From NCBI GenBank assembly GCA_963560155.1, contig CAUWMY010000004.1:205-64204 (forward strand): DNA of 64,000 nucleotides. Direction: 5' to 3'. A model generated the notes under the pieces. The model did no database searches and was not told the DNA's origin. It saw only the letters and a list, made by a program, of their open reading frames with translations. This document shows positions 693-59,916 of the stretch, one piece after another. Source of the stretch: an uncultured Collinsella sp. (GTDB taxonomy: Bacteria; Actinomycetota; Coriobacteriia; Coriobacteriales; Coriobacteriaceae). Within the stretch, counting starts at the first letter, position 1. Each line of letters opens with the position of its first letter. A program made the position numbers and the translations under genes.

Positions 693-725
693 CGTCTCAT
701 TTGGGGACAGGTACAAATTGAGACG
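693..725 (+). repeat. REP-like palindrome, copy 1 (CGTCTCATTTGGGGACAGGTACAAATTGAGACG)
   Basis: Inverted arms around core GGGGACAGGTAC; recurs throughout the window. Confidence 0.85.
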
Positions 726-814
726 CCGGCGCAGCGCCGCCCCGCTACCCCGGTACGGAAAACGCCCCCGGCGCCGAAGCGCCGAGGGCGGACAAAGCGT
801 ACGTCGGAACGCGG

Positions 815-2464
815 TTACTCGGCGTGAGCCTCTTCCCAGCTGCGGTCCTCGGCCTTCTCGACAACACAATTACCGGTGATGGGCTCGGGCTTGCTGAGGT
901 TGCGCGGAACGTAACCCTCGATGAACTTCTCACGCCCAAAGCTGTCCGGAATCGCAACCGGATACTCGCCGGTGAAGCACGCGGTGCAGTAGCCGCCCTT
1001 GGGCACGCACTCAAGCAGCGCATCCACGGACAGGAACGCGAGCGTGTCGGCGCCGATGAACTCGCAAACCTCCTCGACGGACTTGGTCGCGGAGATGAGC
1101 TGGCTCTGCTCGCCGGTGTCCACGCCGTAGAAGCACGGCCAGATATCCTCGGGGCAGTTGATACGGATGTGGATCTCCTTGGCACCGGCCTGACGCAACA
1201 TGCGCACGAGCTGGACCATGGTCGTGCCGCGCACGATGGAGTCGTCCACGACCACGATGCGCTTGCCCTCGATCACGTCGCGCAGCGGGTTGAGCTTGAG
1301 GCGCACGCCCATGGCGCGCAGTTCCTGCGTGGGCTCGATGAACGTGCGGGCCACATAGCGGTTCTTGATGAGGCCGGTGCCGTAGGGAATGCCGCTCTCA
1401 TAGGCGTAACCCTCGGCGGAGGGCAGACCGGAGTCGGGCGTGCCGATGACCATGTCGGCCTCGACCGGGCACTCGAGCGCCAGCTTGCGGCCCATGTCGT
1501 AGCGGCAAGCGTAGATGGACTTGCCATCCACGATGGAGTCGGGGCGGGCAAAATAAACCTGCTCGAAGATGCAATGCGCGGTCTTCTCGGCGGCCGGCAC
1601 ACCCTGCTCGGACACGAGGCCCTCGGCGCTGATGCGCAGGATCTCGCCAGGGCGGATATCGCGCACATACTCGGCGCCGACAATGTCGAGCGCGCAGGTT
1701 TCGGAGGCAACGACCCAGCCAGCGGTGGAGGCCACGACCGCATCGCCCACGAGGTCCTCGGCGGAGGCGGCATCGCTGGGCAGCGCGGAGGCGGCCGCGG
1801 CGGCGTCGGCGGCGGCGACGCCCTCGTCGTTGGTCAGGCGGCCGAGCACGAGCGGACGAACGCCGTGCGGGTCGCGGAAGGCGTAGAGGGCCTCCTCGTT
1901 GATGAGCGCCATGGCGTAACCGCCGCGGATGAGCTCCATCGTCTTGCGGATGCCCTCGCGCAGATGGTGCGTCTCCTGCGTGAAGTAGCCGATGAGCTTG
2001 ACGGCGACCTCGGAATCGGAGCTCGAGTTGAAGGGTACGCCGAGCTCGATCAGCTGGCGACGCAGCTCATCGGTGTTCACCAGGGTGCCGTTGTGGGCGA
2101 GGGCCACGATGACCTCGCCGATGGTGGAAAGGTGGGGCTGGGACTCCTCCCAGCTCTTGGCGCCGGCGGTGCCGTAGCGCACGTGGCCGACGGCCAGCTG
2201 GCCGGGCAGCGAGCAGATATCTGCGTTGGAGAAGACCTTGCTCACCAGGCCGAGATCCTTGCGGACCATGACCGTGCCACCGTCGCCCACGGCGATACCG
2301 GCGGACTCCTGGCCACGGTGCTGCAGCGCGCGAAGGCCGAAGTAGGTCAGACGAGCGACGTCGCGGTCGGGTGCCCAAACGCCAAACACGCCGCACTCGT
2401 CATGCGGATGGTCGGTATCGGAATCGAACGCGGTGAATTCGGACAGATCGGCGTCAAAAGACAT
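815..2464 (-). CDS. purF: Amidophosphoribosyltransferase
   Basis: ECGVFG propeptide/Cys1 motif, [22 protein letters not shown] motif; RBS AAGAGGGG before ATG at 2464; TATAAT at 2508-2513 on the minus strand. Confidence 0.97.
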
Positions 2465-2592
2465 GCGGGTTCCCCTCTTGGTTGCCATGCACGGCCATAC
2501 GGTGGAAATTATACGCGCGCAACGTGCGTGCTAAATGTACACGCTGAATCGACACGGCTTCGCAATGAAACGCGCCCCGTCCTCCGGCTGAA

Positions 2593-2625
2593 ACCTCAAT
2601 TTGGGGACAGTCCCTAAATTGAGGT
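2593..2625 (+). repeat. REP-like palindrome, copy 2 (ACCTCAATTTGGGGACAGTCCCTAAATTGAGGT)
   Basis: 10-bp perfect arms, variant core. Confidence 0.8.
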
Positions 2626-2800
2626 CCCCGACGTACCGTGCCGCCGCGGGCGACTTCAAAGAAGGCCTCACCCTAGACCGAGGTTTGGCCGGGCATGGTG
2701 GAGTGGTGAAGAGGGCGCGCTTTCGATGTAAATCCGGGGGCCGACGGCAGACGGCGCCCATACAATTGCAGTATCGAACCCGCTATTCGACGAGGTGTTC

Positions 2801-3226
2801 ATGGACGAGCAGATTCCCCAGCCGCGGCCCGCAACCCCAGGGACGCGCAAGCACATGGGGGTCGCCACGAGCGACCCGACCTACCTGCCCCCCGTGAACA
2901 ACCCCAACGCGCCCGCATCGGACCGTAAGACGCGCGTCCCTGTGCGCAAGGTTTCGTACGGCAGCGGGGGCTCCGCCCAAAATGGCATCCCCTCGGGCCA
3001 ATCGCCCTCGCGTATCCCAGCCGCCAGCCCAACGCTGCAGGTCCGCACGCACGAAGGCGGCGGCAACATCTCACCGAGACGCAACTACATCTCCACGCCA
3101 AAAAAAGGCCGCGCCATCTTCACGTCCCGTCAGGACCGCCAGCGCCGGCGAATCAAGATCGCCCTCGCGATCATGATCGTCGCCGCGATCTCCCTCGCCC
3201 TGTTCTGGTTCTTCGTCCTGCGCTAA
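2801..3226 (+). CDS. Hypothetical protein: disordered P/S/R-rich N-terminus and a single C-terminal transmembrane helix
   Basis: GAGG RBS before ATG 2801; ends RRRRIKIALAIMIVAAISLALFWFFVLR; 18 bp upstream of iscS on the same strand. Confidence 0.75.
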   Translation: MDEQIPQPRPATPGTRKHMGVATSDPTYLPPVNNPNAPASDRKTRVPVRKVSYGSGGSAQNGIPSGQSPSRIPAASPTLQVRTHEGGGNISPRRNYISTPKKGRAIFTSRQDRQRRRIKIALAIMIVAAISLALFWFFVLR

Positions 3227-3244
3227 GAGATTCGACCATCGCCC

Positions 3245-4480
3245 ATGACCGACATCGCGCCCTACATCTATGCCGACAACGCGGCCACCACGCCGCTCTC
3301 GCCTCGCGCGCTCAAGGCAATGACGCCCTATCTCACCAGCGCTTTCGGCAACCCGAGCGGAATCCACCGCGTGGCGCGCGAAGCTGCCATCGCGCTCGGG
3401 GAGGCGCGCGGCACCATGGCCCGCCTGATTGGCGCCGGGCGTGCGGACGAAATCTACTTCACCAGCGGCGGCTCGGAATCCGACAACTGGATTCTGCGCG
3501 GAGCCGTGCGACGGTTCCGAGACATCCACGGAGAGCATGCGACACCGCACATCGTGACCAGCGCGATCGAGCACCACGCTATCCTACACTGCTGCCAGGC
3601 CCTCGAGGCCGAAGGCGTTCGCGTCACATATCTGCCGGTCGACGCCCAGAGCCGCGTTCACCCCTCCGAGCTTGAACGCGCACTTGCAGAGCATGACGCA
3701 CGCGAGGCAGCAGCCGGCACGGACGCACCCGCGGCCCTCGTCTCCATCATGCTCGCCAACAATGAAGTCGGCACCATCGAACCCGTTCGTGAGCTCGCCG
3801 CAATCGCCCATGCCCACGGAGCGCCCTTCCACACCGACGCGGTTCAAGCGGTGGGACACATCCCCGTCAGCGTGCAGGACCTCGGCGTCGACGCGCTCTC
3901 GCTCTCTGGCCACAAGTTTCATGGGCCGCGCGGCATTGGCGCCCTGTACCTGCGCGAGGGCTTTTCCATCCCGCCGCTCATCGCCGGCGGGGCCCAGGAG
4001 CGCGGCGAGCGGGCGGGTACCGAGAACCTCGCCGGCATCGTCGGCATGGCGGCGGCACTCGAGGAGGCGTGCGCGGACCTCGCTCAGGATGCCGACCGCA
4101 TCGCCGGATTGCGCGACCAGCTCGTACGCAACCTTCTCGGCGAGGTCGACGGCCTGACCCTCACCGGTGCCCCCGTCGATGGCGAATCAACTGGCCGCCT
4201 CCCCTCGATCGCCTCCTTCACGTGCGACGATGTCGACGGTGAGCTGCTCGTGGTCCTACTCGATCGGGCCGAGGTCGCGGCGGCGACAGGCTCTGCCTGT
4301 TCGACCGGGTCGACCGAGCCGTCGCACGTCCTCACCGCGATGGGCATCGAGCCCGCCGCGGCGCGCGGCGCCCTGCGCCTCTCCCTCGCAAGCGACGTCA
4401 CCGCCGAGGACGTCGCCCTCCTCTGCGAGCGCATCCCCTCCTGCATCCGCAAGGCACGCCTCATCAGCTCCATGCGGTGA
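3245..4480 (+). CDS. iscS: Cysteine desulfurase (IscS/NifS family)
   Basis: YADNAATTP, GNPS, FTSGGSESDN, NNEVGTI, HTDAVQ, SGHKFHGP (PLP lysine), GSACS (catalytic Cys). Confidence 0.93.
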   Translation: MTDIAPYIYADNAATTPLSPRALKAMTPYLTSAFGNPSGIHRVAREAAIALGEARGTMARLIGAGRADEIYFTSGGSESDNWILRGAVRRFRDIHGEHATPHIVTSAIEHHAILHCCQALEAEGVRVTYLPVDAQSRVHPSELERALAEHDAREAAAGTDAPAALVSIMLANNEVGTIEPVRELAAIAHAHGAPFHTDAVQAVGHIPVSVQDLGVDALSLSGHKFHGPRGIGALYLREGFSIPPLIAGGAQERGERAGTENLAGIVGMAAALEEACADLAQDADRIAGLRDQLVRNLLGEVDGLTLTGAPVDGESTGRLPSIASFTCDDVDGELLVVLLDRAEVAAATGSACSTGSTEPSHVLTAMGIEPAAARGALRLSLASDVTAEDVALLCERIPSCIRKARLISSMR

Positions 4481-4510
4481 CGGGCCGCCCGCATCTGCGA
4501 GCGGCCCGTC
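4479..4510 (+). terminator. Hairpin directly after iscS
   Basis: GACGGGCCGC...GCGGCCCGTC stem between convergent genes; poor U-tract. Confidence 0.55.
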
Positions 4511-4523
4511 TTCGGCCTCAGGG

Positions 4524-4558
4524 GATGTGTAAAACGCACCCGTCCCCAATTACACATC
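4524..4558 (-). repeat. REP-like palindrome, copy 3
   Basis: Reverse complement reads GATGTGTAATTGGGGACGGGTGCGTTTTACACATC. Confidence 0.85.
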
Positions 4559-4566
4559 ACCGCGCG

Positions 4567-6261: not shown

Positions 6262-6401
6262 GGTGAAACCCTTCCCGATGTTGGTTACGGTGCGGGAGCG
6301 CCGTCAGTATGCGAGCGTCCCGCACCTGCATAATACGCCCTCGAGCGGCTTCGTCGACCAAATTCCCGTCTCAGTCCGGGATTATTCGGCGAGGGGTCAG
6401 A

Positions 6402-6524
6402 AAGTCCCAATCGGGGGCAGGCACCAATTGCAACATTTCGCCTACCGATCCGCCGGCGTCAAGCACCGCCAGCGGCCCGACGCATGTACATGGGCACAAT
6501 TTGTGCCTGTCCCCAATTGCGCAA
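6402..6524. repeat. Degenerate inverted doublet of REP-like palindromes (copies 4 and 5: 6402-6437 + and 6490-6524 -)
   Basis: AATCGGGGGCAGGCACCAATTG on +; AATTGGGGACAGGCACAAATTG on -. Confidence 0.7.
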
Positions 6525-6597
6525 CCGCACCTGCCGCAACTGGTGCTACCCTGTACCCGTACGCTGGTCCATAAGTCCGCGGAAAGGAAACCGAATC

Positions 6598-7464: not shown

Positions 7465-7518
7465 CGCGCGCCGCTGACGAAACTGCGGTCCCACGGCCTC
7501 CGCCCCATCCCGAACGCA

Positions 7519-7548
7519 AAAAGGCATCGACCCATGTCGATGCCTTTT
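7519..7548. terminator. Bidirectional intrinsic terminator
   Basis: AAAAGGCATCGAC-CCAT-GTCGATGCCTTTT between convergent genes. Confidence 0.8.
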
Positions 7549-7578
7549 CTCATATCCCCATGTGCAAGGACGCCCATC

Positions 7579-8466
7579 CTATTCGACGAGCAGCGCCTCG
7601 TCCTGATCGCGCAGCCGTACGTCCTCGTCGATCTCGACCTGAGTCGCGCCTGGGTCCTCCGCCAGCGAACTCACCGAGTTCACCTGCTCCTGGATCGCCT
7701 CGGCCAGATTATCGTCCATGCCGATGATCTTGAGCTCCCAATCGATGTTCGACGGCGTGTCGGACTGCGACTTGGTCCAGACGAACGTCAGCATCGCGCG
7801 ACGCGTGCCTCGGGCGGGAAGGAATCCGAATAGGCGGTCGTGTTGGAATGCCCCCGACTCATCCGTCAGCGTGTAGACGTTGTAGACCACGCGGTTGATC
7901 TTCTCGTTGAGCAGGGCGTTTGTCGCCAGAGCCGAGGCCTGGATCTGCGAGTTCGACAGCAGCTCGAGCTCGTTGTGCGAATCGGTGTCCACCACCGAGA
8001 CCTCGATGGTACCGATCTTCTCACTCGCCTCGTTCACCGTGAACTCGCGGGGAAACTGCGTGAAACCGTTGCCCCACTCGACACCCGACTCCATGGCGTG
8101 CGAAACCGTCTCGGCGTTCGCGCGGTCGGACAGGTTGGCGGTGTTGAGGCGGCGGCTCACGCCGTAGACGATCTGCATGCCGAGAACGAACACGAACACG
8201 CCCATGATCACGGCGACGGCCGTGCGCGAGATGGTCTTGCTCACCTGGGAGCCGGACGGGTCATCCTCGGACAGCGGGTCGATCGCGGCTTTACGGGCCG
8301 CCGAGGGCGCTCCATCGATCTTCTTCCTCGCCTTGCGGCGGGCGAGTAGGCCGCGTGCGGCGTCCTCGCAACCGGGGGCGTCGTCCGGGTCGAGCACGCC
8401 CGATGCGTCGAGCGCGGCGAACAGGTCGCGAGCCTCCTCCGGTGTCATTTCGTGCTTCTTGCCCAT
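7579..8466 (-). CDS. Hypothetical single-pass membrane protein
   Basis: 295-aa ORF, one hydrophobic helix (TAVAVIMGVFVFVLGMQIVYGV); 3 bp downstream of the ABC gene; no family recognised. Confidence 0.8.
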   Translation of the reverse strand: MGKKHEMTPEEARDLFAALDASGVLDPDDAPGCEDAARGLLARRKARKKIDGAPSAARKAAIDPLSEDDPSGSQVSKTISRTAVAVIMGVFVFVLGMQIVYGVSRRLNTANLSDRANAETVSHAMESGVEWGNGFTQFPREFTVNEASEKIGTIEVSVVDTDSHNELELLSNSQIQASALATNALLNEKINRVVYNVYTLTDESGAFQHDRLFGFLPARGTRRAMLTFVWTKSQSDTPSNIDWELKIIGMDDNLAEAIQEQVNSVSSLAEDPGATQVEIDEDVRLRDQDEALLVE

Positions 8467-8469
8467 CGC

Positions 8470-10242: not shown

Positions 10243-10264
10243 GGGCAACTTTCCAGCGATAAGA

Positions 10265-10918: not shown

Positions 10919-10948
10919 GCCGTCCTCCCAGCACACATATCCAAAACA

Positions 10949-11003: not shown

Positions 11004-11062
11004 CTCTAGCCAACATTCGCATCGCGCGCTGTGGGCAGGGTGCCCTCAAGCGCCGCCGCGTC

Positions 11063-39203: not shown

Positions 39204-39253
39204 GAATTGGCTCAAATGCATTCCAGCCCTCACCTGGCGAAACGCTGCCATTG

Positions 39254-39282
39254 AAAAGCCCGTCCATCGGACGGGCTTTTTT
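39254..39282. terminator. Bidirectional intrinsic terminator after rlmN
   Basis: AAAAGCCCGTCC-ATC-GGACGGGCTTTTTT. Confidence 0.85.
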
Positions 39283-39437
39283 CGGTTCAATCATCCATTT
39301 GAATCACAGCGCCAACTCGACCCTGCCTCCACCGCACATGCGGACCTCCTGTCCGAACCGGTGATCCGGTCCAACTTTTCGTCCGCAGCCCCGACGCATT
39401 TCCGAGGTGGAGATGTAGAACCATTCTGTTAGGTACC

Positions 39438-39698: not shown

Positions 39699-40574
39699 CT
39701 ACTCTTGATCAGCATCAACCATGGAGGCAAGGATGCGCTGCAAGTCATCCTCATCCTTGAACTCAATTTCAATCTTATTCTTACCGCGAGTAGAACGAAC
39801 CTTCACATTCGTATTGAAGACCTGACGAAGGACGCGGGCAGCTTTTTTATAGGATTGCGGGGTCACCGGACGTGGAGGCCGAGGCGCATCTCCGACTGAA
39901 AACAATGGAGCAAGGTTCTCAGTCGCTCGAACCGACAAACCTTCTGTGACCACCTTCTCAGCCAGCTTGATTCGAGCCTCCTCAAATGGAACAGCCAGAA
40001 TCGCACGAGCATGGCCGGCGGTAAGTTTTCCCTCATACATGAGCTGCTGAACAGGCTCCGGTAGATCGAGAAGCCTCAATGAGTTTGTTATCGCAGAGCG
40101 AGACTTCGAAACCGCTTTCGACAGAGCCTCCTGCGTCATCCCACTTGCCTTGATAAGCTGACGATATCCTTTTGCTTCCTCAATTGGATTAAGGTCAGAG
40201 CGTTGAAGATTTTCGATAAGTGCAATCTCGAGCATCTTCTGATCATCAACGTCCTTGATTATCACAGGGACTTTCTCAAGACCAGCAATCTTTGACGCCT
40301 GATATCGACGCTCACCGGCAATGATCTCGTACTTCGCTCCATTTTTTCTAACAAGCAGTGGCTGAAGAACGCCATTCTCTCGAATAGATTCACTCAGCTC
40401 CTCAAGCTCGGACTCATTGAAGTGCGTACGTGGCTGATTCGGATTGGGGAAGATATCCTCGATAGACAATTGAACCTCAGACGCTGCCTGAGTAAACCCC
40501 GTCTCCGACTGCGCCTCCCCCATGAGGGAACCGAGACCACGACCGAGAGCCGGCTTCTTTTTCGCGCTAGGCAC
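39699..40574 (-). CDS. parB: Chromosome partitioning protein ParB (Spo0J)
   Basis: LGRGLGSL, PNPNQPR, IIAGERRYQA, ENLQRSDLNPIEEA, HTH, GHARA. Confidence 0.97.
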   Translation of the reverse strand: MPSAKKKPALGRGLGSLMGEAQSETGFTQAASEVQLSIEDIFPNPNQPRTHFNESELEELSESIRENGVLQPLLVRKNGAKYEIIAGERRYQASKIAGLEKVPVIIKDVDDQKMLEIALIENLQRSDLNPIEEAKGYRQLIKASGMTQEALSKAVSKSRSAITNSLRLLDLPEPVQQLMYEGKLTAGHARAILAVPFEEARIKLAEKVVTEGLSVRATENLAPLFSVGDAPRPPRPVTPQSYKKAARVLRQVFNTNVKVRSTRGKNKIEIEFKDEDDLQRILASMVDADQE

Positions 40575-41367
40575 GACGAATCACTTCCTTAGCGAGATCC
40601 ATATACGCTCGGGCGCCCTTGTTGTTGGGTGCATACTCGATAACCGGCATGCCATAAGACGGCGCCTCAGAAACTTTCACTGATCGCGGAATGCAGGTTT
40701 TAAAGGCGACATCACCGAAGTAATTCTGCACCTCCTCGACAACCTGATTCGAGAGCGAAGTGCGAGAATCGAACATCGTCATGAGCACGCCATATGTCTC
40801 AAGATCCTTATTGATACGGCCTTTGACCATTCGCATCGACTCAAGCAGCTTTGTAACGCCTTCCAGTGCGTAATACTCACACTGGATCGGGATGAGCACA
40901 CTGTCTGCCGCTGCCAAAGCATTGATGGTAAGAAGACCAAGGGATGGCGGGCAATCAATAAAGATGAAATCGAACTCATCTTTGACCGGCTCAAGGAGAT
41001 CCTTAAGACGCGTCTCACGTGCCATAGCCGAAACTAATTCGATTTCCGCACCCGCCAGCTGAATCGTTGCGGGGATAATATAGACTCGATCGCTCACAGT
41101 GTCATGAATGAGCTCCTCAGCAGGAACATCGTGCAACAACGCATCATATATGCACTGCGTAAGCCCCTCTTTATCAACTCCAATACCACTTGTACTGTTA
41201 CCCTGGGGATCGAAGTCGACAATCAGTACTTTTCTTCCCTGCTTACCTAGTGCCGAAGCAAGATTGACTGTCGTGGTGGACTTACCGACGCCACCCTTCT
41301 GGTTGATGATTGCAATGGTGTGAAGCGGTTTCGTGCTCTTAGAACGCTTTACATCGCGAAATCCCAC
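40567..41367 (-). CDS. parA: Chromosome partitioning ATPase ParA (Soj)
   Basis: NQKGGVGKST, DFDPQGN, DCPPSLG, EAPSYG. Confidence 0.97.
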   Translation of the reverse strand: MGFRDVKRSKSTKPLHTIAIINQKGGVGKSTTTVNLASALGKQGRKVLIVDFDPQGNSTSGIGVDKEGLTQCIYDALLHDVPAEELIHDTVSDRVYIIPATIQLAGAEIELVSAMARETRLKDLLEPVKDEFDFIFIDCPPSLGLLTINALAAADSVLIPIQCEYYALEGVTKLLESMRMVKGRINKDLETYGVLMTMFDSRTSLSNQVVEEVQNYFGDVAFKTCIPRSVKVSEAPSYGMPVIEYAPNNKGARAYMDLAKEVIRRA

Positions 41368-41420
41368 ATTACCTCCTGTTGTCTCGTTATTGTTGTGCTT
41401 TTCAGGTCTCTTGTAGGTGA

Positions 41421-41470
41421 TGTTTCACGTGAAACCTCTTTATACAAACCATTATGTTTCACGTGAAACT
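41421..41470. promoter_or_regulatory. Two parS sites (41421-41436 TGTTTCACGTGAAACC; 41455-41470 TGTTTCACGTGAAACT)
   Basis: One mismatch each to consensus; directly upstream of parA. Confidence 0.92.
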
Positions 41471-41949
41471 AGTATTCAAGCATCAGTTTCTTAATCATGC
41501 CATGTACTGCTTAGTCAATCTTGCGATGAAACTCAAGTTAGGTAATATCGCAATCCTAATACGCAAACCAGAATCTTAGAGTTTGCTCTGAATTATGCAT
41601 GGAAGATTGATGCATTAAAATAGACATTTAGCAACTTCCAACAATCATAATCAGAACTGCAGTCATTAACATCTGAGGTCGTACTCATTCTGAAGGACAT
41701 ATACAGTCCAAACAATCAACTTACCTGAAAACACAAGTTATACTGTATATGCAATATCAGTGTACAAGAACGATCATTTGAGGTGTTTGAGCAGGGATAG
41801 TTACGGAAATAGCTGATAGAAGTAAACAGTTTATGGATACTGCACCGTTGAAGCCCTTGACATTAATGATGAACGAACGTCAAATTCATCAATGGGTTCT
41901 GAATGCAAGCCAGAATCAGCCTTCAATCAAATACAACCCTCTATAAGAC

Positions 41950-41983
41950 AACAACCCATGTTTCACATGAAACATGGGTTGTT
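41950..41983. promoter_or_regulatory. parS site (41959-41974 TGTTTCACATGAAACA) within a 16-bp-arm inverted repeat after rsmG
   Basis: AACAACCCATGTTTCA-CA-TGAAACATGGGTTGTT. Confidence 0.85.
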
Positions 41984-42008
41984 AGAAAAGCGATAATTGA
42001 AACCAAGA

Positions 42009-42788
42009 TTAAGATACAAGCGGCTGCTTCTTGGCGAGGCCAACAGCACGGGGCAGCTTGATACGCGGCTCGTTTACTTTCTGATACAGAAAAACAGAGC
42101 GATGTCCTAAGTCGCGAGGAAGATCGAACTCATCACAGCCAATAAGTTCCAATCCACAGATATCTGCAGTCTTGGAAGCGAGCTTCAATTCTTCATCACT
42201 AGGATTTGCTTTAGCAACAACCAGATAGCCATCTTCCTCAAGGAAAGGCGTTCCGTACTCGATAATCATAGCCATCTGTCCAACAGCGCGAGCAAAGACA
42301 GTATCAAACTTGCCACGCATGTGCTGGGCATACGACTCACATCGGTCATGAACACCTTGGACATCCTCAATGCCGAGTTGACGAATAAAAGCGTTGACCG
42401 CATCGATCTTCTTGCCAACTGAATCAAGGAGAACACCAGAGCAGCCAGTGTATAGCGCAAAGGGGATTCCAGGGAAACCGGCCCCTGTACCCATGTCGAG
42501 AAAGTTCTCGGGCTCAATAGGGAGATCGCGGTACAAGGCAAGTGAATCAACGATGTGGAGGACCAAAGCGTCATGGATGTCCTTGATACGAGTAAGGTTC
42601 ATGAACTCATTGACCTGATTGACATACAGCAAGTGTTTAACACACTGCTCGGCTGTCGTCTGATCAAGTTCGATATCGATTTGATCGGCCAGCTCGATAA
42701 CCTCGGAAACCAAAGAGGAAAACTCTTCATCCTTAACATCGATGGGTCGAAGTTCTATAACTCGACTAGATTCAAGAGACATATTCAT
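42009..42788 (-). CDS. rsmG: 16S rRNA (G527-N7) methyltransferase
   Basis: NLTRI, HIVDSL, DMGTGAGFPGIP, LDSVGKK, FARAV. Confidence 0.95.
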   Translation of the reverse strand: MNMSLESSRVIELRPIDVKDEEFSSLVSEVIELADQIDIELDQTTAEQCVKHLLYVNQVNEFMNLTRIKDIHDALVLHIVDSLALYRDLPIEPENFLDMGTGAGFPGIPFALYTGCSGVLLDSVGKKIDAVNAFIRQLGIEDVQGVHDRCESYAQHMRGKFDTVFARAVGQMAMIIEYGTPFLEEDGYLVVAKANPSDEELKLASKTADICGLELIGCDEFDLPRDLGHRSVFLYQKVNEPRIKLPRAVGLAKKQPLVS

Positions 42789-42832
42789 GCATCCATTCTG
42801 TGACTGAAATCAATGTAGCAAGGAGTTGCGTC

Positions 42833-42857
42833 AAAAAAGGGGCGCAGAGCGCCCCTT
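42833..42857 (-). terminator. Intrinsic terminator after jag
   Basis: AAGGGGCGC-loop-GCGCCCCTT followed by T run on the minus strand. Confidence 0.8.
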
Positions 42858-42879
42858 GTATCAGCAGTATGTAGCCACC

Positions 42880-43464
42880 CTAGCGAACGGTGATCACAAC
42901 GCGGCGCTCTGGGTCGGTGCCCTCAGAATGCGTATCGATACGATCATCCTCGCGCAGCGTGATGTGGACAAGACGACGCTCATAGGCGGACATGGGAGGC
43001 AGGTTAACCGTGCGGCTCTGGGCAACAGCTCGGGAGGCAGCGGAGTGAGCCATGCTGACCACCTTATCGTGGCGACGACTCTTATAGCCCTCGACATCAA
43101 TGGAAACGGGGTAACGGAACCCAAGCTTGCGGCTCACCAACAGGGAGACCATGGTCTGCAGGGACTCGAGCGTACGACCATGACGACCAATCAGCACGGC
43201 AAGGTCAGGCGCGGTGATGTCGAGAATCAGCTCACCTTCGTCGCCCTCGTACTCATCGATAGGAGAGGTATCAGCATCAAAGAAGCCGAGGAGGTCGCGA
43301 ACAATGGAGATGGCCACATCGGCAATCGTATCGAGGTCCTCGTCTGAGAGCTCCTCGCCAGCCTTGTAGCGGCGGGCAATCTCGGGGTACTCGCCGGTGA
43401 TCTCCTCAACGGGCTCCTCAACCGGCATATCTTCAGTAAGCTCTTCAGTCATGTCCATCTCCAT
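42880..43464 (-). CDS. jag: Jag/EloR (KhpB) RNA-binding protein, KH and R3H domains
   Basis: LIGRHGRTLESLQ (KH), MSAYERRLVH (R3H). Confidence 0.92.
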   Translation of the reverse strand: MEMDMTEELTEDMPVEEPVEEITGEYPEIARRYKAGEELSDEDLDTIADVAISIVRDLLGFFDADTSPIDEYEGDEGELILDITAPDLAVLIGRHGRTLESLQTMVSLLVSRKLGFRYPVSIDVEGYKSRRHDKVVSMAHSAASRAVAQSRTVNLPPMSAYERRLVHITLREDDRIDTHSEGTDPERRVVITVR

Positions 43465-43501
43465 AATTAGGTACCTTAGTAGTTGTTATACCAGGTAAAT
43501 A

Positions 43502-44281
43502 CTAGCGCTTCTTGTGAGGGCGCTTCTTATGCTCGCGACGGACAACGTCGACCTCGATCGGAGCGTTGATCATGCGAGCTTCTTCCTCAGCCTTGGCCTT
43601 GTCGATAACCTTCTGGGTCACAAAGATCTGCTGAATGACCTGCCAGGCGGAAGAAACGTCGTAGTACAGCAGAACGCCGGCGGGCATACCCCAGCCCATG
43701 ACGAGCATCATGACGGTCATGACGACCATCATCATCTTGGTGCTCTGCACCTGGACGCCGGTCTGGTTGCGGGTCATGTACATCTGCGGGATGAAGGTGA
43801 GCACACCGAACAGGATAAGGGCGATCAGGTACGGCAGGGCGGCGCCAAAACCGCCGGCGATGGCCTGAGCGGGCGAAGTGACCAGATTGGGCAGGATGTT
43901 GAAGAACGAGAAGCCCTTATCCGCCGCATCCGGGAAGTAATGGCCGAGGTCGCGCAGGAGGTTGAACAAGGCGACCAGGATGGGCATCTGGATGAGCAGA
44001 GGCAGGCAGCCACCGAAGGGGTTGAACTTGTTCTCAGAGTAGAACTTCTGCAGCTCCTCGGCCTGACGCTGCGGATCGTCAGCGTAACGCTCCTGGATAT
44101 CGAGAAGCTTGGGCTGCAGGACCTGCATGCGGGCGGTTGACTTGATGGACTTGAGCATCATCGGGGTCAGCAGCAGGCGAATGATCACCACCAGGATGAT
44201 GATCGACAGGCCCCAGTCGCCTGCGAAGCGCTGAATGAGCTCAAGCGCCTGGAAGAGAATCTGAACAATCCAGTCCCACAT
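43502..44281 (-). CDS. yidC: Membrane protein insertase YidC/Oxa1 family
   Basis: WGLSIIILVVIIRLLL, LQPK, GGCLPLLIQMPIL, GVLLYY. Confidence 0.95.
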   Translation of the reverse strand: MWDWIVQILFQALELIQRFAGDWGLSIIILVVIIRLLLTPMMLKSIKSTARMQVLQPKLLDIQERYADDPQRQAEELQKFYSENKFNPFGGCLPLLIQMPILVALFNLLRDLGHYFPDAADKGFSFFNILPNLVTSPAQAIAGGFGAALPYLIALILFGVLTFIPQMYMTRNQTGVQVQSTKMMMVVMTVMMLVMGWGMPAGVLLYYDVSSAWQVIQQIFVTQKVIDKAKAEEEARMINAPIEVDVVRREHKKRPHKKR

Positions 44282-49779: not shown

Positions 49780-49794
49780 CCCCCCGCTGCCCCG

Positions 49795-49890
49795 AAAGTC
49801 TCAATTGGGGACAGGCACCAATTGAGACTTTCTTGCCTGCGGCGCCATACGCTCGAATGTCGCAATCGGTGCCTGTCCCCAATTGCACCG
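49795..49890. repeat. Inverted doublet of REP-like palindromes (copy 6 49795-49831 +; copy 7 49856-49890 -)
   Basis: AAAGTCTCAATTGGGGACAGGCACCAATTGAGACTTT, then a degenerate inverted copy. Confidence 0.8.
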
Positions 49891-49942
49891 CCAATTGCAC
49901 CGCCCGCACCACCTTCTTCTCGCACGTTAGGTTCTCCCGCCC

Positions 49943-51091
49943 ATGTTCATCGCCGCGACGGAGCTTTCCGTTCTCCATTACCGCAGCTTCGATGATCTCA
50001 AGATCGAGCTGGATCCGGGCATCACGGTGCTCGTGGGCCGCAACGCCGTGGGGAAGACCAACCTCGTCGAGGCGTTGCAACTGCTCACGGCCGGAGCCTC
50101 GTTCAGAAAGCCGACGGCCTCTGAACTGCTGTGCGAGGGTGAGGGTTCGGGCCGTATCCGCCTGATGCTCGAGGGGGAGGGCCGCCTCATCGAGATGGGG
50201 CTCGATTTTTCCGAGGGTAAACGCTCGTTTACGCGTAACGGGAAGAAGACCCGCGCCGCGGGTATCCGCGGCGTGCTGCCGAGCGTGCTGTTCTGCCCCG
50301 ATCACCTCGACATGGTCAAGCGGTCCGCATCACGTCGCCGCGAGGCACTCGATTCTTTTGGCGTGCAGCTGAACGAGAACTACGCCAAGCTGCTGGCCGC
50401 TTACGAGCGTACGGTCGAGCAACGCAACAACCTGCTCCGCGATGGCTACGCCCCCGGTTTGCTCGAGGTGTGGGACGAGTCGCTCGCCATGACCGGCGCC
50501 CAGCTGCTGCTTCATCGCACGGCCCTGCTCGAGCGCATCCGCGAGCATTTCATCGACGTCTACCGCGCGATCGCCCCGCACGAGGAGCCCGACGTCCGCT
50601 ATCTGCCGAGCTTTGGGGAGCTGGCCGACGGCCGCGAGGCGATCGCGGCACAGTTCCTGGACGCGCTCGCTTCGCGCCGCGAGGACGAGCTCCGCCGCGG
50701 CTGCACGCTCGTGGGCCCGCATCGCGACGAGGTGCTGTTCACCATCGACGGCCGCTCCGCCCGCGATTACGGCAGCCAGGGCCAGCAGCGCTCGATCGTG
50801 CTCGCATGGAAGATCGCCGAGGTCCAGGTGACGCGCGATATTCTTGGCAGGTATCCGCTGTTGTTGCTCGACGACGTCATGAGCGAGCTCGACGCCGCCC
50901 GCCGCGATGCCATCATGGGCTTCATCGCCGACGAGATCCAGACGGTGATCACCACCACGAACCTCGGCTACTTCGCCGAGGACATGCTCGCGCGCTCCCG
51001 CGTGATCCGTATCGGCGATATGCAATTCGCACCCGTCCCCGATTACACATCCGCACCTGGAGGAGAGGAGAAGGCGATATGGGAAAAGTAA
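49943..51091 (+). CDS. recF: DNA replication and repair protein RecF
   Basis: GRNAVGKTNLVEAL, GPHRD, GSQGQQRS, LLLLDDVMSELD. Confidence 0.96.
   Translation: MFIAATELSVLHYRSFDDLKIELDPGITVLVGRNAVGKTNLVEALQLLTAGASFRKPTASELLCEGEGSGRIRLMLEGEGRLIEMGLDFSEGKRSFTRNGKKTRAAGIRGVLPSVLFCPDHLDMVKRSASRRREALDSFGVQLNENYAKLLAAYERTVEQRNNLLRDGYAPGLLEVWDESLAMTGAQLLLHRTALLERIREHFIDVYRAIAPHEEPDVRYLPSFGELADGREAIAAQFLDALASRREDELRRGCTLVGPHRDEVLFTIDGRSARDYGSQGQQRSIVLAWKIAEVQVTRDILGRYPLLLLDDVMSELDAARRDAIMGFIADEIQTVITTTNLGYFAEDMLARSRVIRIGDMQFAPVPDYTSAPGGEEKAIWEK
51017..51051 (-). repeat. REP-like palindrome, copy 8, inside the recF 3' coding region
   Basis: Reverse complement GATGTGTAATCGGGGACGGGTGCGAATTGCATATC; encodes DMQFAPVPDYTS. 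Confidence 0.8.
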
Positions 51092-51459
51092 CTGAGAGGG
51101 GTCGGCTCAAGGCAACCGCCGGCTTGAGTGAGTTCATCAACTCCGAGAGGATGCGCCTGTTCGACGGCGCAACTCCCGAGCGCCAGGCGCAGTTCCGCCA
51201 GGCCGAGCGCCGCCATGTCATCTTCCAGGCGTGGAACAAGGTGTGCGCCGGCACGCGCGAGGGCAGGCACGTCACGGGTCTGCACTACGTCGCCGAGCGC
51301 GATGAGCTCATCGTCTACACGGACGGCGCCTCCTGGACCCAGGAACTTACCATGATGCGCGAGATCATCCGCGCCCGCATGGACGCATGTGGCGGAGCTG
51401 TGGGCAACATCGTGGTCAAGACCACCCGCCCCGGCTTCGCCAAGGGGCCTCGGGAGTAG
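51079..51459 (+). CDS. dciA: DciA/DUF721 family protein
   Basis: Canonical recF-X-gyrB position; AW.....G...HVTG......ELIVY.D...W.QEL pattern; ATG 51079 after AGGAG. Confidence 0.7.
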   Translation: MGKVTERGRLKATAGLSEFINSERMRLFDGATPERQAQFRQAERRHVIFQAWNKVCAGTREGRHVTGLHYVAERDELIVYTDGASWTQELTMMREIIRARMDACGGAVGNIVVKTTRPGFAKGPRE

Positions 51460-51474
51460 CGTGTCTGCGCGTGC

Positions 51475-51518
51475 GATGTCGAAAATGGGGGCACTCGAAG
51501 CGCTTCATTTTCGACATC
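51475..51518. repeat. Hairpin with 13-bp arms GATGTCGAAAATG / CATTTTCGACATC
   Basis: Perfect arms; shares ATGTCGAAAA with the hairpin at 10949. Confidence 0.7.
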
Positions 51519-51535
51519 ACGCGCGCAGGCGGGGC

Positions 51536-51644
51536 AATGTGCAAATGGGGACGGGTGCGAATCGCACATCGGAGAGTGCGCGTCCTCGGCGTCCCGCATC
51601 GACCGCCGGGATGTGCGATTCGCACCCGTCCCCATTTGCACATC
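51536..51644. repeat. REPIN-like unit: two inverted 35-nt palindromes (copies 9 and 10) with a 39-nt spacer
   Basis: 51536-51570 and 51610-51644 are reverse complements at 34/35 positions. Confidence 0.9.
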
Positions 51645-51751
51645 CAGTCGCAAGTCCCCGCAAAACGGCTCTCAGGGGCTTGTAGAGGTATTCGGTACCT
51701 CAAACCTCACGCGTTTTACCCTTGGTCCATGCGATAAAATGTAAAGGTTAG

Positions 51752-53806
<2,055 letters not shown>

Positions 53807-53818
53807 CCGGCGCCGGCC

Positions 53819-53928
53819 GATGTGTAATTGGGGACGGGTGCAAATTACACATCGGCGGGTTCACGCACCCCGCGGCCCGCACCGGCCGCCCGGGATGTGT
53901 AATTTGCACCCGTCCCCAATTACACATC
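53819..53928. repeat. REPIN-like unit: two inverted 35-nt palindromes (copies 11 and 12) with a 40-nt spacer
   Basis: 53819-53853 and 53894-53928 are exact reverse complements (GATGTGTAATTGGGGACGGGTGCAAATTACACATC). Confidence 0.92.
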
Positions 53929-53955
53929 TGCGACCACGACCGATAAGGAGAACCC

Positions 53956-56733: not shown

Positions 56734-56960
56734 GGGTTTTCACGGGGGCATATTCGCTGACAAGGCGGCTTCGACCAAATGGTCGGGGCCGCCGTTTGTG
56801 CTCGCCGGGGCGCGGCCGTCCGCGGTTGTGGAGAGCTGTCCGCCCGCCGAATCCCCGAGCTTCGCCGGCTGCTGTCAGTGCGGATTTGAGGTTATGAACG
56901 ATTGACCCCCTCTGCCCAATTTGGACCCCATCGTTTCCCAAGGTAGATGCATGTGCATAT

Positions 56961-56995
56961 TTGCAGCTTATGAACGGTTCGTTCATAAGCTGCAA
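56961..56995. promoter_or_regulatory. 15-bp perfect inverted repeat upstream of the GH3 gene, candidate operator
   Basis: TTGCAGCTTATGAAC-N5-GTTCATAAGCTGCAA; extra half-sites at 56892 and 57012. Confidence 0.5.
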
Positions 56996-57138
56996 TTTTG
57001 TACGGAAAATTGTTCATAGCCTCACGCACCTTCCCGCGGCTCCGCAGCTCCGCGCCGTGGGCCTTCCAGCGCTCATGCGGGTATAAGGCGGGGGACCAGG
57101 CCGCATGTCGCGGTCTTGCAGTTTTGGGAGATGGCGCG

Positions 57139-59727
57139 ATGATGCGGGACGAGCAATGGGATAATTTGGCTGATCGACAGCCCCCGAGCGCCTCGCGCGC
57201 GAGCAGCCTCCCGCTTGAGGAGCGGGCTCGGTTGCTCGCCGGCGAGTCGCACTGGACAACCCATGCCGCCCCAAACGCGGGCATCCCGAGCCTGTTTCTT
57301 TCGGACGGCCCTCATGGCCTGCGTAAGCAGGAGGGCGCCCAGGATTGCATGGGTATTGCGGAAAGCCGCCCAGCGACGTGTTTCCCCACGGCTTCGGCTC
57401 TCGCCTGCTCATTCGACCCGGCGCTGGTCGAGCGCATCGGCGTCGCGATTGGCGAGGAGGCTCGTCGGCAGGGTGTCGACGTGGTGCTCGGTCCAGGGGT
57501 GAACATCAAGCGCCATCCACTGTGCGGTCGCAACTTCGAGTATTTCAGCGAGGACCCGGTCGTGTCGGGCGAGCTTGGCGCGGCAATGGTGCGAGGCATT
57601 CAGAGCTGCGGCGTTGGCGCGTGCCTTAAGCACTTTGTCGCCAACAGCCAGGAGCATGCACGTATGGTGTCCGACTCCGTGGTCGATGAGCGGACGCTGC
57701 GCGAGCTGTATCTCGCGCCGTTCGAGCATGTGGTGCGCCGCGCCCATCCGTGGAGCGTGATGACGGCGTATAACAAGTTGAACGGCGTCTATTGCTCTGA
57801 GAGCGAATGGTTGCTACGCGAGGTCCTGCGTGGTGAGTGGGGCTTTGACGGCGCGGTCGTCAGCGACTGGGGCGCCATGAGCTCGAGCGTGGCTTCGGTT
57901 CGGGCCGGCCTCGATTTGTGCATGCCCGGTCCCCGCGCCGATCATGCGCGCGCGCTTGTCAAGGCGGTTCGTTCGGAAGATCTGGGGGAGGATCGCGTAA
58001 CCGAGGCCGTTTCGCATATCGAACAGCTGGCCCGTCGAGTGGCGGAAGCCCGTGGCGCCATGCCCATGGGGTCAGCGTCTGGCGAATCCTTGCCCGGAAC
58101 CGCTGCGGAAAAGCGCAAGTCGCTCGTCTCGGGCGAGGAATTCTACCGTGCGCATGCGGACTTGGCCCGAACGGCGGCGGCCCAAAGCGCCGTCCTTCTC
58201 AAGAACGATGGCGTGCTGCCGCTGAATCCGGATGCAAAGGTCGCGGTAATCGGCGCGTTCGCCCGCATGCCGCGGTATCAGGGCTCGGGTTCGTCGCGCA
58301 TCAACCCAAAGATCATCGACAACATCTGGTATCGCCTCGAACAGCGCGGTGTGGCTGCTGAGTATGCGGACGGTTACGACCCCGCAACGGGTGATGTGGA
58401 TGAAGGGCAGCTGCGCGCGGCGGAGACCCTCGCCGCTCGTTCGGATGTGGCGATAGTTGTTGTGGGCCTTCCCTCGCGATACGAATCCGAGGGCTTCGAC
58501 CGTAAGCTCATGGTCATGCCGCGCGGCATGCGCGCGCTCATCGACCGCGTGTGCGCTGCAAATCCGCGCACGGTTGTGGTCCTGCAGGGCGGCGCGCCCA
58601 TGGAAATGCCATGGCGCGACGGCCCCGCCGCGATTCTTCTCATGTACCTGTCCGGATGCCAGGGCGGCGGCGCTGCCGTCGACGTGCTGGTGGGAGATGT
58701 GAACCCCGGCGGCAAGCTCGCGGAAACCTGGCCCGTCGATTTGGGTCAGACCGCGCTCGGTGCGACGTATCCCGACATGGACAACGAGGTTCTCTATCGC
58801 GAGGGCCCGTTTGTGGGATATCGCTATTACGATGCGGCGGACGTCGAGCCGGCGTTCCCGTTCGGCCATGGCGAGTCGTACACCGAGTTCGCGTATGAGG
58901 GATTCGAGGTGAAGGCATGTGCGGGCGTTGAGGTCTCGTTCACGCTGCGAAACATCGGATCCCGCACCGGTGCCGAGGTTGCCCAGGTGTATATCGCGCC
59001 CGCTTCGGGCGTTGTCCCGCCGCCTTGCCCAGTGCAATGGCTCGCCGAGTTCGCCAAGATCGAGCTGAAGCCCGGCGAGGAGCGCCGAGTTGTGCTGAGC
59101 CTGGATGAGGCCGCATTCCGGAAATGGGACGCGAGCCTTCACCGCTGGCGCGTGTATCCGGGTGAGTATGAGGTTCGCGTGGCGTCGTCGAGTCGCGATG
59201 TTCGCCTGGCGACATCCATCGCCGTCGGCGACGGGCAGTCCGCATTCAATCTGGAGGGAGCGCTGTATCGACGTGGTATCACCGAAGAGCAGCTTGCGCC
59301 CGATCAAGCCCCCGCGCCGGCCCGGCAGGTTCCCGAGATATATCGTCATCCGGTATCCAGTTGCTTCGCACAGCCGGAATCTGCACGGGCGTTCGCCGAG
59401 TTGTATGCCCGCCCGCTCCCCGAGCGTCCACCCGTCACGCCGTTCACCATCGATTCGACCGTGAGCGACATGGGCGCCTGCTGGCTCGGCCGTCGCTTGT
59501 ATCGCATCATCGATTGGGTCATGGCCGAGCCGGCGAGCAAGATGAACCGCGATCAAAAGGCGATGATGCGGGAGATGGCGGCCGACATGCCGTTGCGCTC
59601 CCTCACCACGAGCGGCGTTCCCCTGGAGTCAGTGAAGGGTTTTGTCTCAATGCTGAATGGCCATTATCTGACGGGATTTAGACACGTGTTCAAAGGACTG
59701 ATGCACTTTGTGAGAAGCGGACGGTAA
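57139..59727 (+). CDS. Glycoside hydrolase family 3 beta-glucosidase with Fn3-like C-terminal domain
   Basis: SDGPHG, RNFEYFSEDP, LKHFVAN, VVSDW (nucleophile), VLLKND, ESEGFDR, GYRYYD, FGHGESYT; no signal peptide seen. Confidence 0.93.
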   Translation: MMRDEQWDNLADRQPPSASRASSLPLEERARLLAGESHWTTHAAPNAGIPSLFLSDGPHGLRKQEGAQDCMGIAESRPATCFPTASALACSFDPALVERIGVAIGEEARRQGVDVVLGPGVNIKRHPLCGRNFEYFSEDPVVSGELGAAMVRGIQSCGVGACLKHFVANSQEHARMVSDSVVDERTLRELYLAPFEHVVRRAHPWSVMTAYNKLNGVYCSESEWLLREVLRGEWGFDGAVVSDWGAMSSSVASVRAGLDLCMPGPRADHARALVKAVRSEDLGEDRVTEAVSHIEQLARRVAEARGAMPMGSASGESLPGTAAEKRKSLVSGEEFYRAHADLARTAAAQSAVLLKNDGVLPLNPDAKVAVIGAFARMPRYQGSGSSRINPKIIDNIWYRLEQRGVAAEYADGYDPATGDVDEGQLRAAETLAARSDVAIVVVGLPSRYESEGFDRKLMVMPRGMRALIDRVCAANPRTVVVLQGGAPMEMPWRDGPAAILLMYLSGCQGGGAAVDVLVGDVNPGGKLAETWPVDLGQTALGATYPDMDNEVLYREGPFVGYRYYDAADVEPAFPFGHGESYTEFAYEGFEVKACAGVEVSFTLRNIGSRTGAEVAQVYIAPASGVVPPPCPVQWLAEFAKIELKPGEERRVVLSLDEAAFRKWDASLHRWRVYPGEYEVRVASSSRDVRLATSIAVGDGQSAFNLEGALYRRGITEEQLAPDQAPAPARQVPEIYRHPVSSCFAQPESARAFAELYARPLPERPPVTPFTIDSTVSDMGACWLGRRLYRIIDWVMAEPASKMNRDQKAMMREMAADMPLRSLTTSGVPLESVKGFVSMLNGHYLTGFRHVFKGLMHFVRSGR

Positions 59728-59846
59728 CTTTCCTTAACTTTCCGCCACTCACATTTTGCATGCGGTCTAACGTGTGGGAAGATGGAAACACCAGCTCATT
59801 GACGCTGATTCTAATCAATATTCAACTTTCCCTAACTTTCCTGAAT

Positions 59847-59877
59847 AAAAAAACCGGGGCTGGCGACCCAGCCCCGG
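59847..59877 (-). terminator. Intrinsic terminator after the DUF151 gene
   Basis: CCGGGGCTGG-loop-CCAGCCCCGG followed by T7 on the minus strand. Confidence 0.85.
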
Positions 59878-59880
59878 CAA

Positions 59881-59916
59881 AACGTCTCAATTTGTACCTG
59901 ACCCCAATTGAGACTT
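59881..59916 (-). repeat. REP-like palindrome, copy 13
   Basis: Reverse complement AAGTCTCAATTGGGGTCAGGTACAAATTGAGACGTT; overlaps the stop of the DUF151 gene. Confidence 0.85.

Follow-up and report, generated by a model that had tools for sequence, protein, structure and literature searches.

Dispersed palindromes linked to two TIRYT genes in a Collinsella genome

Introduction

The closest described relatives of the repeats reported here fall into two groups. Repetitive extragenic palindromic (REP) sequences, which in Pseudomonas also form the inverted doublets called REPINs (Bertels and Rainey 2011, PMC3116915), accompany genes for REP-associated tyrosine transposases (RAYTs). The second group was described by Di Nocera, De Gregorio and Rocco (2013; BMC Genomics 14:522, PMC3733652), in which RAYT-like genes, named TIRYT, carry terminal inverted repeats (TIRs) in place of GTAG REPs, gene and repeats together being called a TIRtron. 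Here we describe a family of short palindromes first noticed in a 64,000-nt stretch of DNA from an uncultured Collinsella (this whole stretch is called the window below), which we judge, with a probability of roughly 85%, to be dispersed non-autonomous repeats of two TIRYT genes resident in the same genome. To our knowledge, the biochemistry of binding and cleavage of its own TIRs has been done for no TIRYT protein, and no protein of the TnpA_Y1 subclass to which these enzymes belong has a defined DNA substrate.

According to the searched text of the 2013 paper, many TIRtron repeats have the motif GGGGWSAS in common, and some TIR families are moderately abundant, dispersed, partly self-complementary and found in dimers or clusters; binding and cleavage of the TIRs by TIRYT proteins was put forward there as future work. 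In the searched text of Quentin et al. (2018, PMC6006769), TIRYT proteins make up TnpA_Y1 subclass 2.1, long proteins with a C-terminal domain resembling a helix-turn-helix (HTH), and form the second largest group of Y1 HUH nucleases, present in 14.9% of strains. The same text reports no REP-like structures next to subclass 2.1 genes and, for Actinobacteridae, IS200-type members only. Our literature search returned no paper connecting RAYT or TIRYT with Collinsella.

Results and discussion

The palindromes form a genome-wide family with two subtypes

The window corresponds to positions 205 to 64204 of contig C4 in the assembly under study (G000), a Collinsella metagenome-assembled genome (MAG) of 1.6 Mb in 77 contigs with 63% G+C that is 92% complete. 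Scanned with the probe AATTGGGGACRGGYRC, allowing at most two mismatches, the window contains 12 matches (at 693, 4524, 6402, 6490, 49795, 49856, 51017, 51536, 51610, 53819, 53894 and 59881), compared with 0.26 expected from 100 shuffles, none of which reached 12. A preliminary description of the window had listed 13 palindromes, and all 13 lie where it placed them, as these 12 matches and a variant copy at 2593. It had also proposed looking for enrichment elsewhere. An nhmmer profile built from 46 exact copies and run on the whole assembly returned 104 copies at E ≤ 1 (83 at E < 1e-3), and the core of the repeat is widespread in other Coriobacteriaceae as well (see below). By a crude gene caller based on G+C content at third codon positions (80% coding), 86 of the 104 copies are intergenic, and the 18 'genic' ones mostly touch the ends of predicted open reading frames (ORFs). 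The earlier statement that nearly all copies are intergenic agrees with this genome-wide count and fails for the copy at 51017, which lies within the 3′ end of the recF ORF. At its gathering threshold, Rfam placed no family at the repeat sites, its sole matches being three tRNAs.

The census comprises subtype A (52 copies), subtype B (39 copies) and 13 weak matches (E > 0.01, minor types included). Subtype A takes the form (C)GTCTCAATT-GGGGACAGGYAC-AAATTGAGAC, with the consensus (C)GTCTCAATT-GGGGACAGG[C/T]AC-[A/C]AATTGAGAC. Subtype B takes the form GATGTGYAATT-GGGGACGGGTGC-RAATTRCACATC, with the consensus GATGTG[T/C]AATT-GGGGACGGGTGC-[A/G]AATT[A/G]CACATC, and a variant with a 3′ GTTTT occurs. 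The best-conserved part is the central block in both. The consensus arms begin with (C)GTCTC in subtype A and with GATGTG in subtype B, the flanks are 30-60% conserved, and the GT[AG]G tetranucleotide expected at a REP hairpin foot is found in neither the consensus arms nor the flanks of the two subtypes. As for features of intrinsic terminators, no T-run follows the repeat consensus and the stem tops are AT-rich (AATT). A partial 5′ copy (an arm plus AATTGG...) ending in a G-run precedes 11 of the 104 copies; the corresponding downstream control gives 2.

Each subtype lies beside its own RAYT-like gene

The preliminary description had predicted a trans-acting HUH enzyme encoded outside the window. 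A search of G000 with Pfam Y1_Tnp indeed returned two matches, both outside it, scoring 40.8 and 33.3 bits against a 23-bit cut-off, and both have repeats beside them. The first is an intact RAYT-like (TIRYT) gene for a protein of 252 aa on contig C2 (59062-59817, − strand), bracketed by subtype-B copies: 58933 (+) and 59003 (−) lie just past its stop codon and 60001 (−) lies upstream. Read in the orientation of the gene, this places a (+) repeat 184 nt upstream and a (+) and a (−) repeat 22 nt downstream. The gene adjoins rsfS both in G000 and in the related genome G057. The second gene, on contig C10 (258-1003, + strand), consists of two reading frames overlapping after ...SGHLFQ, apparently through a frameshift or a misassembly. 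Downstream of the gene, at 1108 (−), is a subtype-A copy; on its upstream side the gene runs to the contig end. The two proteins are about 40% identical (101 of 252 residues), and the transposase gene is not multiplied as near-identical copies in G000. Subtype B, the partner of the intact gene, is more homogeneous (mean pairwise identity 27.3 of 33) than subtype A, the partner of the broken one (23.4 of 33).

The C2 protein has the sequence hallmarks and the predicted fold of a Y1 nuclease. Among 24 homologues, its motifs H60-V-H62 and Y119-V-H-D-N123-P124 show little or no variation, and a candidate HTH-like motif at the C-terminus, GLTxxQIxRxTGIGRxxISR, is conserved as well. On the NCBIfam model REP_Tyr_transpos (NF047646) it scores 68.7 bits, under the 80-bit equivalog cut-off. 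A PDB search by sequence gave no match, and relatives came from the fold search alone: for the AlphaFold2 (AF2) model of the protein (pLDDT 89.9), the top Foldseek match in the PDB is the E. coli RAYT in complex with a REP hairpin (4ER8_A; E 1.2e-6, TMt 0.73; root-mean-square deviation 2.6 over 149 columns), followed by ISDra2 and IS608 TnpA. Residues ~150-250 are helical in the model, with weak Pfam HTH matches (HTH_23, E 0.12; MerR_1, E 0.097).

We propose that each of these genes encodes a TIRYT, that is, a RAYT-like HUH/tyrosine (Y1) nuclease with an HTH-like C-terminal tail, and that each gene between inverted copies of its own repeat would constitute a TIRtron. The enzyme would act by a single-strand mechanism, binding the repeat as a hairpin of single-stranded DNA (ssDNA), or, where two copies are inverted, the pair as a single long hairpin. 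The invariant GGGGAC(R)GG core, which corresponds to the published GGGGWSAS motif, would be its recognition or nick site: the enzyme would read this core, nick in or beside it and rejoin the strands, and could thereby place new single copies and inverted doublets between genes. The stem sequence is specific to the subtype and stays self-complementary. Subtype B accompanies the intact C2 gene, and the partner of subtype A is the C10 gene with its apparent frameshift. After insertion, copies are passed on vertically over long periods and decay through point changes and deletions.

Stems covary around a constant core

Between subtypes A and B, five stem positions show full compensatory changes, with the core unchanged. 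Across 83 aligned copies, 76% of stem cells pair, compared with 64% in shuffles and at most 40% when the partner is slid, and the 150 double-sided changes (81 in shuffles) were reached in 0 of 500 shuffles. The covariation is thus real, as had been proposed from arms that vary yet keep pairing; because its signal is mostly the split between the two subtypes, the independent compensatory events behind it are few.

The element consists of a 9-11-bp stem and a 13-nt centre, or, in the CACCAATT variant, of an 11-bp stem and a 9-nt centre, and single copies folded as ssDNA reach −6.6 to −13 kcal/mol (z −4 to −8.7). The centre was originally drawn as a fixed, unpaired block. Its core is indeed fixed in A and B, but each AATT box pairs with the other as part of the stem, leaving a centre of 13 or 9 nt. 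Similarly, the picture of a constant loop displayed on an interchangeable stem fits subtypes A and B, but not all members of the family. The variant at 2593-2625 (+ strand; ACCTCAATTTGGGGACAGTCCCTAAATTGAGGT) reads ACCTCAATTTGGGGAC-A-GTCCCTAAATTGAGGT, with GGGGAC-A-GTCCC at its centre, so that the GGGGAC core is base-paired within a 15-bp stem (−13.1 kcal/mol, z −7.3). The core also lies within the stem in repeats of the congener G014 (GGGGACGGGTT-CGCTTC-AACCCATCCCC), of C. stercoris (GATGTGTAATTTGGGGTC/GACCCCAAATTACACATC) and of Olsenella (AAAAGGGGACAGGCCCCTTTT), and in every doublet it is able to pair with the core of its partner. What is constant is the GGGGAC core; its unpaired state is not.

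A conserved loop on a covarying stem, in copies many of which would be transcribed in 3′ untranslated regions (UTRs), could also mean that the repeats act as RNA, as a structured motif bound by an RNA-binding protein or by another RNA. Such a role appears highly improbable, since copies occur on both strands without relation to the strand of the flanking gene, inverted doublets pair loop to loop, and relatives as well as the 2593 variant have the core within the stem. The lack of any Rfam match and the linkage of the repeats to DNA-nuclease genes argue in the same direction.

A further form of the repeat was seen in two copies, at C32:4956-4992 and C68:1854-1890, whose centre GGGGACGTACCCC turns them into a perfect 16-bp palindrome (e.g. 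GCATGTGTAATTGGGG-ACGTA-CCCCAATTACACATGC). In form it falls between subtype B and the perfectly palindromic repeats of C. stercoris.

Inverted doublets occur in one order only

About half of the 104 copies are paired at less than 250 nt, with 25 pairs ordered '+ then −', none '− then +' and 6 in tandem. Their spacers measure 5-238 nt, with a mode near 37 nt, and each doublet can be folded as a single long hairpin (−30 to −56 kcal/mol; z −7 to −14). Private variants are common to the partners of a doublet, more so than to same-subtype copies from other doublets (31.6 compared with 29.1 of 33 positions in subtype B, p ~ 2e-4; p ~ 0.007 in subtype A). Between doublets, similarity of the spacers is weak (z 3-6) and seen in a few subtype-B pairs only, the two spacers flanking gyrB reaching z ~3. 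BLAST detected no second copy of the doublet spacers in G000, and the whole-doublet matches of 70-81% identity in that genome are carried mainly by the repeats. In shape the doublets are REPIN-like, in that they combine inverted repeats, a short spacer and one long hairpin.

The exclusive order of the two copies (25 to 0) and the unique, cargo-like spacers would also be compatible with miniature inverted-repeat transposable elements (MITEs), in which TIRs around a variable interior are moved by a cut-and-paste DDE transposase, or by recombination or replication slippage, the Y1 genes being merely flanked. A possible 9-11 nt direct repeat around the insert between dnaN and recF (see below) points the same way. 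However, half of the copies are single, we saw no DDE transposase with these ends, and the putative target duplication is imperfect and C-rich. Furthermore, the two Y1 paralogues are neighboured by different subtypes, one each, and the core stands at fixed distances from homologous Y1 genes in both Coriobacteriia and Firmicutes, unlike what random insertion would produce. We therefore regard a MITE-like origin as very unlikely, and retain the TIRYT genes as the probable source of the doublets.

Several spacers resemble G+C-rich hairpins, and an origin of doublets by insertion on either side of a terminator was considered. It was rejected as a general rule, since in relatives the spacers between dnaN and recF and between gyrB and gyrA measure 11-40 nt and lack a hairpin.

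At C12:39043-39190, repeats are arranged as a head-to-tail cluster of 4-5 overlapping units, each sharing an arm with its neighbour. This cluster mixes A and B cores (GGGGACAGGTAC, GGGGACGGGCGC, GGGGACGGGTGC, GGGGATAGGTGC and GGGGACGGACGC).

Copies are gained, lost and inverted between sister species

By identity at the gyrB 3′ end, the species nearest to G000 are G083 (94%), G186 (93%) and G057 (90%), with other sampled congeners at 81-85%; the cross-genome alignments cover hand-picked stretches rather than a full census. Between dnaN and recF, G000 has a 163-nt spacer with a subtype-A doublet (+ 49795-49829, − 49856-49890). Because the spacer is 12 nt in G083 and G186 and 11-12 nt in six other congeners, this doublet is an insertion specific to G000, and the comparison of filled and empty loci that had been suggested at the outset yields a site empty in eight congeners. 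Similar C-rich strings, CCCCGCTGCCC ... CTCCCGCCC, stand on either side of the insert (in the window, the left flank reads CCCCCCGCTGCCCC and the right flank TCTCCCGCCC, at 49780-49800 and 49925-49942), where the empty site of G083 and G186 has TCCCCGCCGCCC once.

Three further loci differ in other ways. Between gyrB and gyrA, the subtype-B doublet of G000 (+ 53819-53853, 40-nt spacer, − 53894-53928; −55.6 kcal/mol) is present in G186 in near-identical form, spacer included, and is reduced to a 20-nt remnant in G083. The same interval is 12-40 nt without a repeat in G010 and G015 and ~150 nt without a repeat in G013, and contains a doublet with different arms in G014. Upstream of gyrB, where G000 has a full subtype-B doublet (+ 51536-51570, 39-nt spacer, − 51610-51644) that folds into one long hairpin of −53 kcal/mol, G083 and G186 have only the outer 20 nt of the − copy. 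Finally, at the 3′ end of recF, the single subtype-B copy of G000 (51017-51051, − strand) is matched in G083 by the same element in the opposite orientation between the same flanks, and is truncated in G186. This copy lies in the recF ORF (49943-51091) and encodes 12 residues, DMQFAPVPDYTS, of a 25-residue tail that follows ...RVIRIG; as a result of the inversion and the truncation, the RecF C-terminus differs between sister species. All three truncations in the sister species break within the core, just after GGGGACGG.

The G083 assembly (99% complete, 3 contigs) contains 59 core matches of both subtypes, and the flanks of many of these copies match those of G000 copies. A profile search found no TIRYT homologue in G083. 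Its spacer between rsfS and a glycosyltransferase gene (L163 2704-2797) is 92 nt long with an ordinary terminator-like hairpin, and the same interval in G000 holds a 1.1-kb repeat-TIRYT-repeat cassette (C2:58929-60034). Copies therefore persist without the enzyme. As many copies occupy loci common to the sister species, much of the family is old and not recently mobile; it predates G000 and its sister species, and at least one insertion is specific to G000.

These comparisons bear on whether the hairpins might instead be selected by the host, locus by locus and independently of any transposase-like gene, as 3′-UTR stabilisers, attenuators, terminators or sites for nucleoid or regulatory proteins. 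Several copies start at or just past a stop codon and precede a terminator, as at 59883-59916 (− strand), where the start of a subtype-A copy with the core GGGGTCAGGTAC coincides with a predicted TAA stop. On the strand of that repeat, a separate terminator-like hairpin comes next, together with a T-run. Repeats are also found in 10% of convergent compared with 4.8% of divergent spacers, both subtypes are kept at orthologous loci in G083 without any detected TIRYT gene, and classical REPs affect mRNA stability according to the searched text of PMC6006769. On the other hand, insertions went into tight operon junctions that measure 11-40 nt in relatives (dnaN-recF, gyrB-gyrA), both orientations occur, with opposite orientations at one site between sister species, and one copy lies within a reading frame (recF). 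Single copies have no T-run after the hairpin, and TIRYT genes are bracketed by repeats in many genera. A host role as the explanation of the family is thus unlikely, though secondary effects of the repeats on expression may coexist with dispersal by TIRYT.

The gene is near-universal in Coriobacteriaceae and the repeat expansion is patchy

Of the 201 Coriobacteriaceae genomes sampled, 186 have homologues of the C2 protein, 1-6 in each and mostly at 38-59% identity. A GTDB-wide scan recovered them in Collinsella, Olsenella, Enorma, Thermophilibacter, Atopobiaceae and Eggerthellaceae, and in Firmicutes such as Sporomusa at 35-38% identity. The core TGGGGACRGGYRC is found 74 times in G000. About 14 further genomes, from five genera, have 30-78 copies each and most others 3-10, with a reversed-pattern control at 0-3 per genome (usually 0-1). 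The TIRYT gene is thus near-universal in the family, and expansion of the repeat is patchy. An initial impression of a species-private family, from 0 exact AATTGGGGACRGGYRC 16-mers in 40 relatives (a sample that left out the sister species G083, G186 and G057), was overturned by this shorter core.

In many genera, the TIRYT genes of relatives have the same + ... − bracket of repeats, in which the core beside the homologous gene is carried by other arms, such as GGGTTGGTT...CCAACCC and GGGTCAGTT...CTGACCC. In Sporomusa and in a Clostridia MAG, the repeats are simple inverted ones with (A)GGGACGGTTC. Members of our alignment of gene-flanking repeats were chosen with a pattern that fixes the core, which makes core invariance there a matter of construction; the evidence from these repeats is their position beside the genes.

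These patterns would tentatively fit a more specific proposal, to which we give somewhat worse than even odds. TIRYT and repeat may be old partners in Coriobacteriaceae, with the gene at fixed sites and an enzyme that reads GGGGAC-R-GG in any self-complementary context, in which the core may be displayed in a loop, lie within a stem or pair with an inverted partner. Paralogues might then keep separate repeat populations by stem identity alone, and recurrent breakpoints could mark the nick site: the three independent truncations after GGGGACGG and the 11 upstream partial copies ending in a G-run may be such marks. If true, this would be a first handle on DNA choice and cutting by subclass 2.1 Y1 nucleases.

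The family is of the TIRYT/TIRtron kind

With the TIRtrons described in 2013, the Collinsella family has in common a RAYT-like HUH/Y1 gene that is longer than the E. coli RAYT gene and bracketing inverted repeats with a GGGGWSAS-type motif (GGGGACAG, GGGGACGG); the helical C-terminal tail may be HTH-like as well. Likewise, the repeats are dispersed and moderately numerous, show partial self-complementarity and often stand in dimers or clusters, with one repeat family per gene as in S. maltophilia K279a. Subtype A (GGGGACAG) fits GGGGWSAS exactly; Olsenella has GGGGACAG as well, and C. stercoris GGGGTCAG. The differences lie in the host, a member of Coriobacteriia that is without mention in the searched text of PMC3733652 and PMC6006769, and in the presence of repeats beside subclass 2.1-type genes, next to which the searched text of the latter reports none. 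In addition, the Collinsella repeats are discrete 33-35-nt hairpins with the motif in the loop and two subtypes related by compensatory stem changes, and they combine a gene present in 186 of 201 genomes of the family with a patchy expansion. Relative to the searched text of these two papers, the host group and the hairpin form are new, and the family is no new class of element.

Classical REP/RAYT systems and REPINs (E. coli TnpA_REP, 4ER8; Pseudomonas) resemble the Collinsella family in their short extragenic palindromes, in inverted doublets able to form a long hairpin, and in a low-copy HUH/Y1 gene between its own repeats (REPtron) that occupies the same site in related genomes, with one gene per repeat family; the predicted fold of the C2 protein is also best matched by 4ER8. 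Unlike REPs, the Collinsella repeat has no GT[AG]G foot and its conserved block is central, the C2 protein falls under the REP_Tyr_transpos cut-off and has an extra, putatively HTH-like tail, and the doublet spacers are not conserved as they are in Pseudomonas REPINs. Insertion sequences (IS) of the IS200/IS605 group (IS608, ISDra2) have the same HUH/Y1 catalytic core and subterminal hairpins recognised in ssDNA. However, they move as whole gene-carrying units in many identical copies, with ends that are not mutual inverted repeats, whereas here the two genes are 40% identical, the C2 gene occupies the same rsfS site in G057, and short repeats alone have multiplied.

The REP-like reading of the preliminary description is therefore supported by the genome-wide enrichment, the linked RAYT-like genes and the empty orthologous sites. 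A lack of enrichment, a lack of compensatory change and copies fixed at the same loci in distant relatives, which it had named as counting against that reading, were none of them found. Its assignment to REP/RAYT stands as regards a REP-like repeat with a Y1 enzyme and changes as regards the branch, which is the non-GTAG TIRYT/TIRtron one.

Several observations weigh against a TIRYT origin of the repeats. The doublet spacers are mostly unique, unlike those of classical REPINs, and the arrival of a doublet with a new spacer is unexplained. The strings flanking the dnaN-recF insert could be an imperfect target duplication, which is not expected of Y1 transposition, and are ambiguous. The frameshift in the C10 gene could be an assembly error, and the subtype-B core GGGGACGG departs from GGGGWSAS at position 7. 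Finally, that G083 keeps 59 copies without a detectable TIRYT fits fossils but also retention at the level of the host.

Together, G000 and its sister species offer a clean natural data set. It comprises two pairs of enzyme and repeat that have the core in common and differ by compensatory stems; one of the enzymes is apparently broken, and neither is detectable in a sister species, where both were lost. Near the origin, at the housekeeping loci dnaN, recF, gyrB and gyrA, gains and deletions can be dated and one inversion is seen. The data set makes TIRYT recognition and the cut site directly testable with oligonucleotides. For the annotation of Collinsella, the repeats explain recurrent contig breaks, inflated spacers between dnaA and gyrA, and the altered 3′ end of recF.

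Other features of the window

The remaining copies in the window lie near its start. A single subtype-A copy, CGTCTCATTT-GGGGACAGGTAC-AAATTGAGACG, occupies 693-725 (+ strand), and a subtype-B copy with the GTTTT 3′ variant lies at 4524-4558 (− strand) with nifS-like and phosphoglucomutase-like genes as neighbours. At 6402-6525, a subtype-A doublet with degenerate arms consists of a + copy (6402-6436) and a − copy (6490-6525) separated by a 52-nt spacer in nhmmer model coordinates. The 13 copies are grouped at 0.7-6.5 kb and 49.8-59.9 kb; the 43 kb from 7000 to 49700 are without any copy, the average in G000 being ~1 per 15 kb. Within the window, G+C content falls to 49.6% at 40001-44000, compared with 62-66% in the rest.

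We also observed a second, unrelated family of palindromic repeats of ~60 nt, GCGCGTGCGATGTCGAAAATG...CATTTTCGACATCACGCGCGC, with at least 10 copies in G000. Its copy in the window (51465-51530) lies directly upstream of the doublet at 51536 and is missing from that spacer in G083 and G186. Elsewhere in G000, copies are found at C52:6114-6167 and 7541-7588, C12:8422-8485 and 39251-39309, C32:5557-5618, C5:29151-29213, C21:12744-12801, C14:30495-30555 and C23:11283-11334.

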